A stretch of DNA of 14,519 bases from a virus. The stretch is from UHGV virus genome UHGV-0203503. The stretch is one strand, 5' to 3'. The translations under genes and the position numbers were made by a program. Of this stretch, positions 230 to 10,634 are shown piece after piece (position 1 is the first letter of the stretch; each line of letters starts with the position of its first letter). The notes under the pieces are model-generated. The model was not told the origin of the DNA, did no database searches, and saw only the letters and a program-made list of their open reading frames with translations.

Positions 230-260
230 TTGACGTAGATTGAGTGGTGGTGCATAGTAT
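230..260 (+). promoter_or_regulatory. sigma70-like promoter P1 for the plus operon 292-2066
   Basis: -35 TTGACG 230-235, 17-nt spacer, -10 CATAGT 253-258 (or TAGTAT 255-260); ~30 nt leader to ATG 292. Carries an imperfect inverted repeat TTGACGTAGAT (230-240) / ATCTACATCAA (260-270). Confidence 0.4.
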
Positions 261-291
261 CTACATCAAGTGATGAGTGAGGAGAAATGAA

Positions 292-2098: not shown

Positions 2099-3027
2099 GC
2101 TGATTGCCATGCCTCTCGCTGCTTATCAAGTCTTTCCTGCGATGACTCAAGAATAACTGGCTTTCCATCCATTAGCAGTGTTGGTACTTGTGCGCAATGA
2201 CAATTCCTTCGGTTGGCAACTTCACTATAGAACGTGTCGATTTCTTCTGGCGTGTAAAACCTCCCGTGTCTCGCCGCGTGAGTATGGCGGGTCGTGCGCA
2301 TTAATGCCGATTGCCACAGCATTACCGTCTCAATACCTAACTCTTCGCGCGCTTCAATGACTTCTCTCCTGTTTGCCTGCCGCAGCGTTCCGGTGATTTC
2401 TGTTTGCGCCAACTGTTTTGCGTAACTGTGAGACACATCGATACGCTTAACGATGTCGGCTTCAACATCACGAGGATTAGCGCCTCGAGCAATGCCTTCC
2501 ATAATGACAGATGCCAGTTGCTGACGGGAATAATCACTCAATCCGCGCCAGTCTGAATATCCTTGCGTGTACGCTAGCTGGAGTCGATTCAGATAAGGCT
2601 CACTGTAGAGTATCGCGGCAATCGGCCTCTGCTCGGCATAAACCGGAGACAGGCTTGATAGCTCTGAGTTAGCCTTCTGCGTGCCAGCATGATGCGCATC
2701 ACCAATGAACACATTAGCCCACATCCTGCCGTGACCGAAGTCGTCACCTTCAAGCAGAATCTCGTCAATCAGCGCCTGCAACTCATCCATGAAAGTGGCA
2801 GCCCGCGCACTACTAAAATCGTAGAAATACAGACCGCTTGATTCTGCGTTGGTCTGGCTGCTCGGAATGGTGCGAAACAACTCAAGCGCACGAGTCCTGA
2901 GTTGTTTGTATTTGCGCGTTATCACCTTATCCATCTTCGACAGTCGCGTTGCAGCGCCTAACGGGTCGGTCAGGCTCTGCGATATGCGCGGTTGTGGCAA
3001 CCTTGCATTAAACCGGAGTATTTTCAT
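2077..3027 (-). CDS. Phage head morphogenesis / minor capsid protein (Mu F-like, SPP1 gp7 family), ~316 aa
   Basis: Lies immediately downstream of the portal gene on the same strand; C-terminal region ([18 protein letters not shown]...) resembles Mu-F-like proteins from memory. Start set at internal ATG 3027 (GGAAGA RBS) because the track ORF start 3111 lies inside the portal gene. Confidence 0.6.
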
Positions 3028-4420
3028 TTTCGTCTTCCGGCGGCGTGTCTTCGCGATAATTTTCGTCCAGCTCAATCGGCTCCATACCCACCATGCCGCG
3101 AGCCTCATCAACAGTCAGCAATGCAGATTGACCAGCATCAAAGAACGACTTGTTCGCAGTTGCGAGCTTAGACAGCAATTCGGCCTTATCCAGCTCTGAT
3201 GGAGCCAGCAGGTCATCCCACTTAACCTTGTAGCCGTTTGCCGGGGCTTTATCGACAATGCCGAACTGAATCATGCGCTCAACGAACATTGAGATGACGT
3301 AATCAACCCATGTTTCGCGGCGCTGTTTTGCGGTCATCGCCTCCTGCATCTTGTCCTCGTCGCTCGCAAGGCGTCCGGTTTGCTGGCCAAAAATAACGGT
3401 GAACGGAAGTGCCATTGATGCGGCGAACTGGTTGGCAGCAACTTCCCATGTTGGTTTCGGGTCGGCTGGTGTCACAGCGAGAACTTTTGCATCCGCGCCC
3501 ATTGTGAACATGGCTGCGTCAATCCCGGAGTTCAGCGCATCAATGTTCTCATTCATGATGTCGGTAAGCTCTTCAATATCGACACCCATTGACTGAGCTA
3601 GGCTTGCTGGCGTTACGTTATCCTTCGTGTAGTTAACCGCCAGTTGGCGGCTAGCATTCTTCAGGAAGCCCTCTGCGGAGCTACCGGAAACCTTAGCCAT
3701 GTCGATAAGGCTGTTGTAGCCAGCACGCAGCATCGGGATGCCACTGAACATACTACCGTCAAAACTACCCTCAGCCAGAATGATGATGCGGTCTGGGTGA
3801 ATCTGTACGGAACGCTCAGGCTTGCCATTGCTGTCGAAATCTTCCACGGCGCTTTCCTGGTATTCGTACATCTCAGGCATACCGTAGTCTTCGCTGGTTT
3901 CGTCGTTATTCCACGCGCTGACGCGGAGCTGCTCCTCCCATACAGGAATAAAGCGAACGATGGATTTATCTTTAATGCGGCGGGTTTTGGTGATGTCTAC
4001 AGGCTCACTCCACTGCTTGCCGTCGCGGATTTGCAGGATAACGGCGGAATAGCGGTTGATGGCGTTGCGCTTGTCAGCCTCCTTGATGAACGGGTAGGCG
4101 CGCTTCATCATGCCGTTGATGGACAACTCCCACGACGTTGAGTTCTTATCATCCTCTCCATCTTCAACCACTTCAGGGTATTTCTGCCAGCATTTATTAA
4201 TAATGCGGTTAATACCAGCGGCGGCAGCTGGGTGTCGTTCATAGGCATAACGGAACATCTCAGCGGTAATTTCCTGCGGGTAGCCCAGCTCCTTCCACAT
4301 GAACTCACGCTTCTGGTCAAGATTCTTCCCGCCAGCACAAAGCCTCTGCTGCTGAATTGCCCGGTTATTGTTCGCTACGCGGTCGCGTATATAGGCGTTT
4401 AATGCATCAATTTTTGACAT
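3008..4420 (-). CDS. Phage portal protein, 470 aa
   Basis: 470-aa ORF between terminase large subunit and Mu-F-like gene in the conserved order; acidic C-terminus. Assignment is by position and size, not by a recognised motif. Confidence 0.6.
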
Positions 4421-4431
4421 ATGTCACCAAT

Positions 4432-4458
4432 AAAAAATCCCATCACGTTGGATGGGAT
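4432..4458 (-). terminator. Intrinsic terminator (minus strand) between the small-gene cassette and the portal gene
   Basis: Stem ATCCCATC (4437-4444) / GATGGGAT (4451-4458), 6-nt loop, followed on the minus strand by TTTTT (complement of A-run 4432-4436). Sits 11 nt upstream of the portal ATG. Confidence 0.5.
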
Positions 4459-4493
4459 TATAACACGAGCTTGCAGTGGCTATGGTTGATGGC

Positions 4494-4724
4494 TTATTCT
4501 CTCCGTGATGGTATTGCAATCATCGGTTGCGTTTGTCTTTGCATGATAGATAATAGCTCGCCCTTGTAATGTTCTGTAATTTCATTTTGCCCTTTCATGT
4601 AAATCAAGATGGCCTCCTGTTCGGTGACAATTCCTTGCTTAAACAAGGTTATTACTTTCCTTGCCATAGTATCGCAAAGAGATAATTCTTCAAGGTATTG
4701 AATCGGCGTTTCGCAGTTATCCAT
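4494..4724 (-). CDS. Hypothetical protein, 76 aa
   Basis: ATG 4724-4722 overlaps upstream stop (TGATG); track ORF 4494-4727 begins at GTG. Confidence 0.4.
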   Translation of the reverse strand: MDNCETPIQYLEELSLCDTMARKVITLFKQGIVTEQEAILIYMKGQNEITEHYKGELLSIMQRQTQPMIAIPSRRE

Positions 4725-4909
4725 CACTCCACCTTTTCCAGTTTATCAATAACAATATCGAACCCTTGGGATTGGAATATGGCGGCATTCTCGTTCGCCA
4801 TAAATACTTCGAAAGCATGAACTGCGTTTGACGCAGCTATCACCATAGACATTTTTGCGGCAACTTCACCACCACCAAGCACTTCAGCATGAATAAAATA
4901 AACGCTCAT
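4724..4909 (-). CDS. Hypothetical protein, 61 aa
   Basis: ATG 4909-4907 overlaps upstream stop (TGATG); translationally coupled chain. Confidence 0.4.
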   Translation of the reverse strand: MSVYFIHAEVLGGGEVAAKMSMVIAASNAVHAFEVFMANENAAIFQSQGFDIVIDKLEKVE

Positions 4910-5097
4910 CACTCAATCTCCTCACCATTAACCCAGCGTTGCAGGACTTCGATTAGCTGCGCGGCTTGCTGTTTGTCGATGCCAATAGAGTTAACATCAT
5001 CGCCTTCACGGAATGAAGTAAGCATAATGATAGGGTAATCACCAAAACTATGACTAACTTGCAGTTCATAGCAATTTTTTGTTTCACCAATAATCAT
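4909..5097 (-). CDS. Hypothetical protein, 62 aa
   Basis: ATG 5097-5095 preceded by GAGG at 7 nt spacing, inside the repeated element TTGAGGTGATGTGATG. Confidence 0.4.
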   Translation of the reverse strand: MIIGETKNCYELQVSHSFGDYPIIMLTSFREGDDVNSIGIDKQQAAQLIEVLQRWVNGEEIE

Positions 5098-5152
5098 CAC
5101 ATCACCTCAACAAAGTTCACCATCAGTTACCACCAACAACTTCTGCCATAAT

Positions 5153-5356
5153 TTATTTCTGAACATGATTAATCCACCATGCGGCAATTGCTGAGAAAAT
5201 CCACAAGCCGATAACAAGCCTGAAAACCTGCCAATTCAGTATGTCATCAATACTTGGCGCCTCCCATCTAATCAGCCAGATAAGCGGGAAAGCAAGCGCC
5301 AGTGCAATGGTGTACTTAATACCAATAAGAAGAAAATCTCTTAGGAAGCCTCTCAT
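5153..5356 (-). CDS. Small membrane protein, 67 aa, two predicted transmembrane helices
   Basis: Hydrophobic stretches IKYTIALALAFPLIWLI and VFRLVIGLWIFSAIAAWWI; ATG 5356 preceded by the same GAGGTGATGTG element. Confidence 0.45.
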   Translation of the reverse strand: MRGFLRDFLLIGIKYTIALALAFPLIWLIRWEAPSIDDILNWQVFRLVIGLWIFSAIAAWWINHVQK

Positions 5357-5365
5357 CACATCACC

Positions 5366-5560
5366 TCAACCAATCGGAAACCACTTATCAATGACATCAT
5401 GGAATTTTTGCATAACCTTTGCCTGCCAAAATTCAAGCCACTCAAATAAATTTCTTGCACCAGAAAAGAAAACCCACAATAACCACACAGGAACAAAAAA
5501 TGGCAGTAAAGCAATCCTTCCGATCTTGCTTCTGTTGCTCATCCTGCTTATCTTAAGCAT
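5366..5560 (-). CDS. Small membrane protein, 64 aa, one predicted transmembrane helix
   Basis: Hydrophobic stretch IALLPFFVPVWLLWVFF; ATG 5560 directly after upstream stop, preceded by GAGGGTGATGTG. Confidence 0.45.
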   Translation of the reverse strand: MLKISRMSNRSKIGRIALLPFFVPVWLLWVFFSGARNLFEWLEFWQAKVMQKFHDVIDKWFPIG

Positions 5561-5564
5561 CACA

Positions 5565-5771
5565 TCACCCTCTCAAAAAATCATTCTTGCAGCAGATACC
5601 CTTGTACCCGCGCTTCTCCTGCAGATTAACGAAAACATCATCCAGAACGCGCAGCAGGAAATCCTCGTCAATATCATACCGACGGCAAATCACCTCATCA
5701 GGTACACCAGCCCGCGCCAGTGAATAAACCTGCTCTTTTTCCTCCTGTGTGAATCCTGCATAGCTGCGCAT
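5565..5771 (-). CDS. Hypothetical protein, 68 aa (first gene of the minus cassette)
   Basis: ATG 5771 with GGAG at 8 nt spacing; ~24 nt downstream of predicted promoter P2b. Confidence 0.45.
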   Translation of the reverse strand: MRSYAGFTQEEKEQVYSLARAGVPDEVICRRYDIDEDFLLRVLDDVFVNLQEKRGYKGICCKNDFLRG

Positions 5772-5801
5772 AGTGATATCTCCGATAAGCCTGATGTAGA
5801 T

Positions 5802-5830
5802 ATACTATGCGCTCGGTGTAGATTGGTCAA
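5802..5830 (-). promoter_or_regulatory. sigma70-like promoter P2b for the minus six-gene cassette
   Basis: On the minus strand: -35 TTGACC (complement of 5825-5830), 17-nt spacer, -10 TAGTAT (complement of 5802-5807), then ATCTACATCA as in P1. Confidence 0.4.
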
Positions 5831-5868
5831 GTGTGGCGATGAGGATTTATCGACATTAACAGTAAATG

Positions 5869-5897
5869 TTGACGTAGATATGTTGGTGACGTAGAAT
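5869..5897 (+). promoter_or_regulatory. Near-consensus sigma70 promoter P2 for the plus two-gene cassette
   Basis: -35 TTGACG 5869-5874, exactly 17 nt spacer, -10 TAGAAT 5892-5897; divergent from P2b. Confidence 0.5.
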
Positions 5898-5930
5898 CAT
5901 CTTATCGAAAAGAGATTAAGGAACAAGAGA

Positions 5931-6086
5931 ATGTTTGAGACTAAAAAAGAATGCGAAGCGTATATTGCCGAAACTTATGGTGCTGACTACGTTAAATTTG
6001 GCATCGTTACCGCCCAGAAAGTCGGCCCAACAATCGCCAAGATGCTTGGTATTAAAGAAGGTTACTACCCATCAAATGCCTACTAA
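5931..6086 (+). CDS. Small hypothetical protein, 51 aa (below ORF-track cutoff)
   Basis: ATG 5931 preceded by AAGGAA (5918-5923); translation MFETKKECEAYIAETYGADYVKFGIVTAQKVGPTIAKMLGIKEGYYPSNAY; alternative reading to the TTG-initiated 117-aa track ORF. Confidence 0.4.
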   Translation: MFETKKECEAYIAETYGADYVKFGIVTAQKVGPTIAKMLGIKEGYYPSNAY

Positions 6087-6090
6087 TTAC

Positions 6091-6288
6091 ATGCCGAGAT
6101 GCCTTCGTGAAATACCGAAGGCAAAAGTGAAGCCAAGAAATCAAGCAATAAAAGAGGCAAAGATTGAGGCTTTCAATATTGCCATTTCGATAATAAAAGA
6201 GAGATGCAGAGATGAAAAGTCTGAACGCGTTAAATCAAACATGTATGCAGCTGTGAGTGATATATCAAGATTGAGAGATGAGCTTTAA
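6091..6288 (+). CDS. Small hypothetical protein, 65 aa
   Basis: ATG 6091 in the frame of track ORF 5935-6288; basic, helix-like sequence (MPRCLREIPKAKVKPRNQAIKEAKIEAF...); RBS weak, start uncertain (an in-frame ATG at 6076 is also possible). Confidence 0.3.
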   Translation: MPRCLREIPKAKVKPRNQAIKEAKIEAFNIAISIIKERCRDEKSERVKSNMYAAVSDISRLRDEL

Positions 6289-6317
6289 GCCCTCATTTGA
6301 GGGCTTTATTTTTATCG
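6288..6317 (+). terminator. Intrinsic terminator of the plus cassette, lying 7 nt from the terL stop
   Basis: Stem AGCCCTC (6288-6294) / GAGGGCT (6299-6305), loop ATTT, followed by TTATTTTTAT on plus; no T-tract on the minus side. Confidence 0.55.
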
Positions 6318-7736
6318 CCTGCGTCGGATTAGCATTCCGCTTCCGCGCTGGACGATGTGGTCATTTAGTGCGTAACGAACGGCATCCCAGAAGTGGTTAA
6401 ATGCATCGACAATATCAGTCAGCACATTCCCCGTCAGCTTATCGACCTTGTAGCTGTACATCGTTGCTTCATTCTGCATTTCCTTGCATCGCTCGTGGAT
6501 GATGATGCTGTCACATCCGCGCAGCCACGTGACGCCATCCTCAACGCTTCCCGGCCATTTAGTGCACGGGTGAATATCGAATCCAGAGCGCTTGATGTGA
6601 CTGATAGTCTCAGGTCGAGCGCAGTCTGCATACCATCGCGCGCGCTTAGCCATAGGGAATGATTGCTCCATCGCAGCTGGCGTATCGGTAATCTCAAGGC
6701 CAACCTTGCCATACTCTCGATTAATATAAATGTTGCGCCGTCCATCTGGTAATTCTTCGATATAAACCTCAACCATCGCGGTAGGATCGGTGGAAAACCC
6801 GAAGTCCATCCCGAAGTATGGGCCATGCCATTCAGGTTTGACTTCAAAGTCATCAACGCGCCATTTGCCACCGAATACCTGCTCGTCGCTTCGCTTGTTA
6901 AAGGCTCCCATCCAAATCCAGCGGTAACGGTCGTAATCAGTTCGTTTCATTTGCTCCATGGCGGATGGCAGCGGTGTATCCCAGAACCACGGGTTGTCTG
7001 AATAGTTACATTCGATAATCAGAATTTCATCATTTTCGAATATTCCATCAACCATCTGTGAGTGATAAGGAGCAATCCAGTTTTTCCATGTCGGGTCTGT
7101 TTCCTTGTTGGGGTTAAATGAGCACCACAGCTCGGAATTGGCGGCGCGGATGGTAGGCACGAGAATGTCCCAGCTTGTCTGGCTGACGTTCTCCGCTTCC
7201 TCTACCCAACCGACGGTAATGCCAGCAAAGCCCTTAACGGTTGTCTGATTGCGATACAACCCCTTAAAGCGAAACTTTGCTTTGGTCTTCTTGTGTGTTA
7301 TCTCGTTGTTGATAACGCGAAACTCAGCTGACTCGCCTTTGCGGGCTATCTCATCAACAAGCTCCTGATAGCTTGAGTCTTCAATGGATTGCTGAATCTC
7401 ACGGAAGCAGGCAAAGCGGTCGGGTCGAAACCTTGCGCGCTCAGTAAGGATGGTGATAATTGTTCTCGTTTTCCCTGACCCACGCCCACCATAGACAAAC
7501 TTGAAACGTTTGGGGTATAGCAGACGTTCCAGCTTTGCCGGAATGAGGTGGTCGGCATGAGTGGTTGCATTGGTCACATCATCAACGCCAGTAGCGGTCA
7601 TCCTTAACCGCTTGATGACGTTTTTCTGCATGTCGCAGATACCAAAGATAGCTGATTCTGCGACATCTGTCATTGCATCATCAATCTGCGCTTCCAGCTT
7701 TTCTATTGCCAGCGCGGAGAGGCGTTTACGAGCCAT
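6312..7736 (-). CDS. terL: Phage terminase large subunit, ~474 aa
   Basis: Walker A VYGGRGSGKT, Walker B-like ITVGWVEEAE, nuclease-domain-like GMDFGFSTDP. Start set at ATG 7736 (GGAG RBS, 11-nt overlap with the terS stop) rather than track start 7805. Confidence 0.88.
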   Translation of the reverse strand: MARKRLSALAIEKLEAQIDDAMTDVAESAIFGICDMQKNVIKRLRMTATGVDDVTNATTHADHLIPAKLERLLYPKRFKFVYGGRGSGKTRTIITILTERARFRPDRFACFREIQQSIEDSSYQELVDEIARKGESAEFRVINNEITHKKTKAKFRFKGLYRNQTTVKGFAGITVGWVEEAENVSQTSWDILVPTIRAANSELWCSFNPNKETDPTWKNWIAPYHSQMVDGIFENDEILIIECNYSDNPWFWDTPLPSAMEQMKRTDYDRYRWIWMGAFNKRSDEQVFGGKWRVDDFEVKPEWHGPYFGMDFGFSTDPTAMVEVYIEELPDGRRNIYINREYGKVGLEITDTPAAMEQSFPMAKRARWYADCARPETISHIKRSGFDIHPCTKWPGSVEDGVTWLRGCDSIIIHERCKEMQNEATMYSYKVDKLTGNVLTDIVDAFNHFWDAVRYALNDHIVQRGSGMLIRRRR

Positions 7737-8172
7737 TCTGCTGCTCCAGCAATTTCTCCAGTCGTTCAAGGCGCGCGGCGAGTTCGGTAATTTCCTGAAT
7801 ATCAAGGCCAGACTTGATAATGTCTGCCATCATCTTTCCGATGTCGGCAGGAACAACGCCAGTGGATACACCCTTGATGATTGCGTCCATTTTTTGCACC
7901 GGGGTTCCGTCAGCAGGGAAGTCGAACTCCACAGGAGGAGCTACAGGCTTAGGAATTGGGTTGAGCCTCAGGAATATCTCTCGAAGCATACTGGTAGCCT
8001 GAGCGTCTTCGCATGTCATCGCCTTATTGATGTAATAAGTGACGAATTCAATCTCACTCATCGGTGTATTCGCAGCACGAAGCGCCTCAAGCAGCACAGT
8101 GCGATAGCTCTTTCCGCGCGGAGGTGGTTGATTTGTAGATGAAAATTTGTGTTTTGGATTTGGGTTTGCCAT
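7726..8172 (-). CDS. terS: Phage terminase small subunit (probable), 148 aa
   Basis: Immediately upstream of and overlapping terL; basic N-terminus and helical C-terminus; start at ATG 8172 (track ORF extends to 8247 but first ATG is at codon 26). Confidence 0.6.
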   Translation of the reverse strand: MANPNPKHKFSSTNQPPPRGKSYRTVLLEALRAANTPMSEIEFVTYYINKAMTCEDAQATSMLREIFLRLNPIPKPVAPPVEFDFPADGTPVQKMDAIIKGVSTGVVPADIGKMMADIIKSGLDIQEITELAARLERLEKLLEQQNGS

Positions 8173-10605: not shown

Positions 10606-10634
10606 AATCTACATCAGTTGTGATTCTACGTCAA
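10606..10634 (-). promoter_or_regulatory. sigma70-like promoter P4 for the minus operon 10575 to 8300
   Basis: Minus strand reads TTGACG (complement of 10629-10634), 17-nt spacer, TAGATT (complement of 10606-11); same architecture as P2. Confidence 0.45.

Follow-up and report, generated by a model that had tools for sequence, protein, structure and literature searches.

Introduction

Short conserved boundary sequences, or linkers, at the junctions of mosaic phage genomes belong to the Susskind-Botstein modular theory and were described in lambdoid phages (PMC3029335). They lie at gene boundaries and at homology breakpoints, between flanks that are unrelated or diverged, and have been proposed as substrates for the homologous recombination that reassorts modules. 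Because boundary sequences cannot be found at most mosaic boundaries, dense examples are uncommon (PMC3029335). Here, we analyze a short repeat in a 14,519-nt stretch of the virus genome UHGV-0203503 (hereafter the window), a siphophage of the Skatevirus group (Skatevirus, Deseoctovirus, Swiduovirus, Buchananvirus, Shuimuvirus). The repeat recurs at the junctions of a cassette of six small minus-strand genes, named g1 and A to E in the order of reading, which is located between the large terminase and portal genes (Table 1). It is real and non-random, and represents a clear but not unprecedented conserved boundary sequence. Like the linkers of mosaic phages, it is conserved between unrelated flanks, coincides with homology breakpoints, and has different partners in different genomes. 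Unlike them, it is itself the stop/Shine-Dalgarno (SD)/start unit, with stops in three frames; within a group of lytic siphophages, it is found at almost all junctions of a single operon, and the units reassorted around it are single small accessory genes, not functional modules. No earlier description of this junction was found in the Skatevirus literature or in general literature searches.

Translationally coupled junctions (ATGA/TGATG overlaps, termination-reinitiation) and the bicistronic design as their synthetic counterpart are similar in another respect. In both cases, 0-9 nt separate the upstream stop from the downstream ATG, and the SD sequence is placed at or in the end of the upstream open reading frame (ORF); in the window, a 19-codon leader ORF ends in the motif before gene C. 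At the junctions studied here, a purine-rich match to the anti-SD sequence is found at the spacing expected of an SD (5-10 nt upstream of the start), and the upstream stop is near to the start or overlaps it. Known coupled junctions are, however, gene-specific, whereas here one junction family serves unrelated gene pairs, closes three frames, and is predicted to couple translation across them.

T4-type promoter early stem-loop (PeSL) elements combine an early promoter with a stem-loop and flank genes in hyperplastic regions. As in that system, a repeated short element borders small accessory genes in a hypervariable region, with proposed gene shuffling through recombination between copies. PeSLs, in contrast, are transcription elements of at least ~50 nt with a hairpin, while the motif is a translation element of 13-20 nt. 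An element of the PeSL type was rejected, since one conserved promoter-like site is located upstream of g1, the individual genes have no promoters of their own, and folding z-scores are unremarkable. Integron cassettes likewise contain small, promoter-less, exchangeable genes behind one upstream promoter, with a repeated site at the borders of each. In the present locus, exchange would proceed by general or short-homology recombination rather than by site-specific recombination. An integron-type array was also rejected, because no integrase is present among the 90 annotated genes of the fully annotated related phage Bas77 and the junction lacks imperfect inverted repeats of the attC type; its pentamers are direct repeats, and they form no stable hairpin.

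Results

Three repeat copies form the stop and start region of cassette genes

An earlier note on this DNA had reported an exact 18-mer at 5094-5111 and 5353-5370 with a 12-mer core at 5558-5569. We confirmed these occurrences, and neither was equalled in 200 shuffles. The 18-mer TCATCACATCACCTCAAC still has two matches in the window when up to three mismatches are allowed (chance mean 0.03; 0/200 shuffles reach two copies). Its 12-mer core CATCACATCACC is found at 5095-5106, 5354-5365, and 5558-5569 (chance mean 0.10; 0/200 shuffles reach three), and the window holds no fourth site with one mismatch allowed. In a repeat search of the window, the three copies align over 21 nt with 100, 95, and 76% identity, and the other two junctions of the cassette (4722-4734 and 4907-4919) are recovered as 85% versions of the same 13-mer.

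On the minus strand, which is the coding strand, copies 1 and 2 read GAGGTGATGTGATG and copy 3 reads GGGTGATGTGATG. The layout (T)TGAGG-TGATG-TGATG consists essentially of three direct pentamers and, because the pentamer period is 5 nt, puts a TGA stop into every reading frame. Each copy is positioned immediately 5′ of an ORF, namely A, B, or C. Gene g1 uses the second TGA of copy 3, gene A the first TGA of copy 2, and the 19-codon ORF the first TGA of copy 1, while the stops of C and D are TGAs that overlap the next ATG (TGATG). Stop-to-start gaps thus amount to 4 nt at g1/A, 9 nt at A/B, 9 nt at remnant ORF/C, and -1 at both C/D and D/E. Closure of all three frames is found at 23 of 145 junctions of distinct cassettes, compared with 1 of 84 other genes of phage Bas77.

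The segment GAGGTGAT is an 8-nt complement of the 3′ end of E. coli 16S rRNA (...GGAUCACCUCCUUA). In copies 1 and 2, its GAGG core is placed 7 nt before the ATG and 4 nt before the GTG; copy 3 has GGGTGAT. In relatives, the GTG is often swapped for GTT, GCG, ATT, or TTT, whereas the ATG is invariant, and the real start codon is therefore most likely the ATG. The earlier note had assigned to the three copies the ribosome-binding sites (RBSs) and start codons, a GTG and then an ATG, of three consecutive genes. This assignment holds in that each copy precedes an ORF and that the ATGs of A, B, and C lie within the motif. It most likely does not hold for the GTG, which is replaced in relatives, and it does not hold for the strict succession of genes, as B and C are separated by the 19-codon ORF. 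A junction look-alike, TGATGAGGTGATTTG, is present inside the g1 coding sequence (5686-5700, minus strand; codons P-D-E-V-I-C). No start codon follows it, and the resemblance is probably a coincidence.

One junction family is shared by a hypervariable operon

The comparison set comprised 50 related loci (16 from GenBank and 34 from IMG/VR), which contain 173 tight junctions. Across these loci, the stretch from g1 to the portal gene ranges from 303 to 1806 bp and is built from 34 protein families in 44 distinct cassettes, among which the gene arrangement of the window is unique. For sequence comparison, junctions were anchored at the ATG and represented once per combination of left and right family (n = 45). 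Their consensus is AGGTGGAGTG followed by ATG, and most positions between -10 and -1 carry 0.8-1.3 bits. A GTG occupies positions -3 to -1 in 30 of the 45 combinations vs. 2 of 79 non-cassette genes of Bas77 (Fisher p = 2e-15). Junction pairs with different families on both the left and the right side are identical at 6.45 of 12 positions, compared with 3.76 of 12 for control gene starts, and an exact run of at least 5 nt occurs in 25% of these pairs vs. 0.4% of controls.

The variant found in the window, GGTGATGTG followed by ATG, stands behind three families (F0, F6, F9) and in front of seven (F1, F2, F7, F8, F9, F10, F25), and the same junction family joins different gene pairs in different phages. 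As a shared patch, the repeat measures 13-20 nt and sometimes reaches 30-100 nt, then including conserved 3′ gene tails. A genome-wide style of translation initiation was dismissed as the source of this uniformity, since other gene arrays of Bas77 have ordinary, diverse RBSs. The best explanation of the motif is that it represents the local, and commonest, variant of a junction shared by nearly all genes of a hypervariable accessory operon. The earlier note had left room for a local coincidence, in which related genomes would show unrelated junctions; the same junction family is instead present in the relatives. Its proposal of a conserved coupling element is supported at the level of sequence, in that the motif joins an extended SD with the upstream stop and the downstream start, is kept across the phage group, and is specific for the cassette.

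Homology breaks and whole-gene indels coincide with the junctions

BLAST homology between the window and its relatives ends at 5554-5565 (copy 3, at least 17 relatives), at 5352/5353 (copy 2), at 5091-5114 (copy 1), and at 4717-4722 (D/E junction). At copy 2, the homology to ASO78B, Bas80, and HC6 stops at 5353/5352, and at copy 1 individual high-scoring segment pairs (HSPs) end at 5094, 5091, and 5114. Altogether, 76 of 147 HSP ends (52%) fall within -18 to +6 of a junction ATG, vs. 9.9% expected. Compared with ASO78B, the window contains ~240-260 extra nt, made up of gene B and the remnant ORF. One copy of the 18-mer stands at either end of this stretch, and ASO78B has a single junction that can be aligned with each of the two. 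Pairwise comparison of cassettes yielded 101 distinct whole-gene indels, about two-thirds of which are flanked by a junction repeat of at least 9 nt (mode 13-16 nt, e.g., AGGTGGAGTGATG).

Gene order changes as well. In phage C1, it is g1-B-F6-A, so that gene A lies behind a 135-aa gene and not behind g1, while the window has g1-A-B-(F6 remnant)-C. The closest relatives differ from segment to segment: g1 and A are 96-98% identical to ASO78B, B and the remnant ORF 90-97% to BS5, and C 92-93% to DS8 and ASO78B, whereas D is conserved at its ends only and E has no relative. The seams between these differently related segments fall at motif copies, and from these alignments the window itself looks like a product of junction shuffling. 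Between adjacent genes, distance matrices show no correlation (Spearman rho ≤0.16); thus, neighboring genes reassort freely.

Sequence conservation at the junctions exceeds that of the genes around them. Identity reaches 0.91-0.97 at positions -20 to +9 of C/D-type junctions and 0.86 at positions -10 to -1 of junctions that follow D, with flanking gene alleles ~40% diverged in both cases. Unrelated upstream genes sometimes share 3′ tails of 24-40 nt together with the junction, as seen for F7 and F8 before F6 and likewise for F6 and an F10 variant. At 4861-4996, a patch of ~100-130 nt, from the last part of C into the first part of D, keeps 88-94% identity even to relatives in which C and D otherwise escape detection by DNA comparison; it forms a longer conservation island centered on the C/D junction. 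The earlier note had also raised the possibility of recombination junctions. In support of this, homology breaks at all three copies and indels are flanked by the motif; the recombination mechanism is suggested, not proven, by these comparisons.

The ORF between B and C derives from a larger gene

The 19-codon ORF at 5166..5107 is an in-frame remnant of a 135-aa gene of family F6. The full-length gene is intact in many relatives, including C1, Bas77, and DS8. In the window, 116 of its codons are missing, and the same deletion is found in Salmonella phage BS5 (L006/L043). Through the remnant, an ORF still extends from within the 3′ end of B as far as the junction before C.

Cassette genes and neighboring features

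A megablast search with the region matched 157 phage records, each covering no more than 50% of it. No copy was present in 5,426 complete E. coli genomes, and the region is therefore not a prophage in those genomes. The six cassette proteins are of unknown function, and each belongs to a different PHROG family or to none. Where A, B, and C differ from their relatives, substitutions favor the third codon position, an effect clearest for B and C; these are therefore real genes. Gene E drew no tblastn match from 50,697 phage records and belongs to neither a Pfam nor a PHROG family, and its DNA is unmatched among the 50 related loci.

Upstream of the cassette, a block of ~460 bp (5852-6311) comprises the inserted plus-strand gene and a bidirectional terminator-like hairpin (6287-6306). 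The block is absent from C1, ASO78B, HC6, IME207, Bas77, and others, where g1 directly follows terL; other relatives carry different minus-strand genes at this position. Thus, the block marks a second indel hot spot.

The sequence ATCTACRTCA occurs five times in the window, at 231-240 (-), 259-268 (+), 5792-5801 (-), 5870-5879 (-), and 10607-10616 (+), compared with a chance mean of 0.09 (0/200 shuffles). The sites lie just 3′ of -10-like GCATAGTAT boxes. The reverse complement, TTGACGTAGAT, constitutes the -35 of promoter-like sites, so that the -35 and +1 elements are inverted copies of one another, and ATCTACATCA is also found upstream of two Bas77 genes. These sites probably represent a phage promoter/operator family.

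Table 1. Coordinates of the cassette, its junctions, and flanking features in the window, and of the recombination module of Bas77
Feature	Position	Strand	Remarks
Large terminase	7805..6312	-	First in minus-strand order
Inserted gene, PHROG 5305, unknown function	5935..6288	+	Opposite orientation to the cassette
Promoter-like site TTGACC-17-TAGTAT	5802..5830	-	Upstream of g1, in a block conserved in all relatives
Gene g1, 68 aa, PHROG 13301, function unknown	5565..5771	-	First cassette gene; in 50/50 related loci
Junction copy 3 (g1/A)	5558..5577	-	TTTGAGAGGGTGATGTGATG; TGAs 5575-5573, 5567-5565 (g1 stop), 5562-5560; ATG of A 5560-5558
Gene A, 64 aa from ATG, family F9	5366..5560	-	One hydrophobic segment
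Junction copy 2 (A/B)	5353..5370	-	GTTGAGGTGATGTGATGA; TGAs 5368-5366 (A stop), 5363-5361, 5358-5356; ATG of B 5356-5354
Gene B, 67 aa, hydrophobic, family F7	5153..5356	-	Directly after g1 in relatives
19-codon ORF, MFRNKLWQKLLVVTDGELC and stop	5107..5166	-	Shares 14 nt with the 3′ end of B; its stop lies in junction copy 1
Junction copy 1 (remnant ORF/C)	5094..5111	-	GTTGAGGTGATGTGATGA; TGAs 5109-5107 (remnant stop), 5104-5102, 5099-5097; ATG of C 5097-5095
Gene C, 62 aa, PHROG 13627, family F2	4909..5097	-	
Junction C/D	4907..4926	-	GGTGAGGAGATTGAGTGATG, diverged family member; C stop 4911-4909 overlaps D ATG 4909-4907 as TGATG
Gene D, 61 aa, PHROG 26739, family F1	4724..4909	-	
Junction D/E	4722..4735	-	AAGGTGGAGTGATG, family-wide consensus form; D stop 4726-4724 overlaps E ATG 4724-4722
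Gene E, 76 aa, ORFan	4494..4724	-	
Terminator-like hairpin and T-run	4436..4459	-	Between E and portal; block conserved in 48/50 loci
Portal	4420..3008	-	Followed by a head-morphogenesis gene
SSB, Sak4-like AAA_24, exonuclease VIII-like module	34713-37394 of Bas77 (L051)		

Discussion

We favor, with reasonable though not full confidence, a reading of the compared sequences in which the junction is a common adaptor for termination and re-initiation and also the patch at which crossovers shuffle the cassette. At the level of translation, an upstream ORF in any frame would terminate at the motif, with a TGA available in each frame, and GAGGTGAT with its GAGG 7 nt before the next ATG would let ribosomes re-initiate. 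Ribosomes could in this way pass from gene to gene along one transcript. At the level of DNA, the shared junction may act as a crossover patch between genomes during co-infection, and whole genes could be inserted, deleted, swapped, or re-ordered at junctions without harm to either neighbor. This second role is suggested because the same junction sequence recurs at nearly every junction and across relatives. The enzymes would likely be those of the phage's own recombination module, as encoded in relatives, which possess an exonuclease VIII-like PDDEXK nuclease, a Sak4-like AAA_24 protein, SSB, and RusA (Table 1). At low frequency, systems of the RecET type can recombine over 5-13 bp (PMC2327257). 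Separately, in a genome-reduction study of Skatevirus seszw, three multi-gene fragments, covering genes 3-10, 55-59, and 69-71, were reported to be lost spontaneously (PMC9825161).

Several observations weigh against a role in recombination. Efficient Red/RecA recombination usually needs ~30 bp (PMC2327257), and the motif, at 13-20 nt, is shorter. About one-third of the indels have an overlap of only 0-6 nt, the joint of the F6 deletion in the window displays 1 nt of microhomology only, and several deletions in relatives leave non-coding 3′ tails with gaps of 18-61 nt. Illegitimate events thus also occur, as the non-coding tails and the F6 deletion indicate. Selection for intact boundaries acting on such events would give repeat-flanked indels as well, since all junctions look alike whatever made the indel. 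At copy 2, the sampled parents offer ~4-6 nt of usable identity, and gene B is preceded by GGGTGATT and ATG in 9/9 relatives. HSP ends from kin loci are not independent, which inflates the p-value for breakpoint clustering. Within genomes, junction variants are not homogenized (permutation p = 0.35), and from family frequencies the same variant would occupy all three window junctions by chance with a probability of ~0.06. On the permutation result, we rejected concerted evolution or gene conversion within a genome, and we regard the identity of the three copies as a coincidence of the commonest variant.

Much of this evidence can also be read as the mark of a translation signal without any recombination role, in which each gene keeps its SD, stop, and ATG, illegitimate joints arise anywhere, and those at boundaries survive. 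GAGGTGAT is an optimal anti-SD match and its TGA also serves as a stop, retained RBSs stand behind remnant 3′ tails, and the spacer variant often travels with the downstream gene, as before B; the indels with little overlap, the F6 joint, and the lack of intragenomic homogenization are also in line with it. The literature favors illegitimate recombination at most phage mosaic joints (PMC3029335). Such a signal does not, however, explain why GTG is so enriched at -3 to -1, where it has no known SD or start function when it is not part of a stop, nor why other gene arrays of the same genome make do with ordinary, diverse RBSs. Junction islands of 0.9 identity extend over 30-100 nt, longer than a translation signal, and unrelated genes have common 3′ tails of 24-40 nt. 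We therefore consider translation alone a possible but lesser explanation. It is improbable that the junction is instead kept uniform as the binding or cleavage site of a phage regulator, either a translational repressor or an SD-cleaving endoribonuclease that co-ordinates the cassette. Precedents exist in T4, whose RegB cuts GGAG within early RBSs and whose RegA acts as a repressor at RBSs; the motif is confined to the cassette and more conserved than an SD would require, and one relative encodes a protein annotated as RNA-binding. Yet no regulator was identified, many junction variants are tolerated, and breakpoints and indels at the motif would be left unexplained. The folds of the five window junctions (z -2.0 to +2.3) revealed neither a common structure nor consistent occlusion of the SD.

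The earlier note had further considered gene duplication, according to which A, B, and C would be paralogs diverged beyond recognition that retained their junction. The similar sizes (61-68 aa) and junctions of the cassette genes and the hydrophobic character of both A and B would fit such an origin. Among the six cassette proteins, however, none of the 15 pairwise Smith-Waterman scores departs from shuffle expectation (z -1.5 to +1.5), and no two proteins share a PHROG family. Relatives contain the same genes alone or with other neighbors, and A and B have different closest relatives. Taken together, tandem duplication is very unlikely, and we rejected it.

Beyond the adaptor and crossover patch that we favor, the repeat (TGAKG)x3 might have evolved as a universal adaptor which unites three-frame closure, restart, and a homology patch. 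It would then support integrase-free, integron-like exchange through a Sak4-like/exonuclease system, with the junction selected for evolvability as well as expression. We regard this extension as speculative and rather doubtful. The genes exchanged in such a system would be small accessory genes, possibly with functions in anti-defense or exclusion.

It is a long-standing question whether phage mosaic joints arise from short linkers or from random illegitimate events sorted by selection. Linkers are rarely visible, which makes this question hard to test (PMC3029335). In practical terms, the junction marks true ATG starts in this phage group, brings a mini-ORF remnant to light, and outlines a region into which genes can probably be inserted. 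The cassette provides a dense natural case for the linker question, with dozens of small genes in 44 arrangements joined by one junction family, and culturable E. coli and Salmonella phages carry different cassettes, e.g., the BASEL phages Bas77-81.

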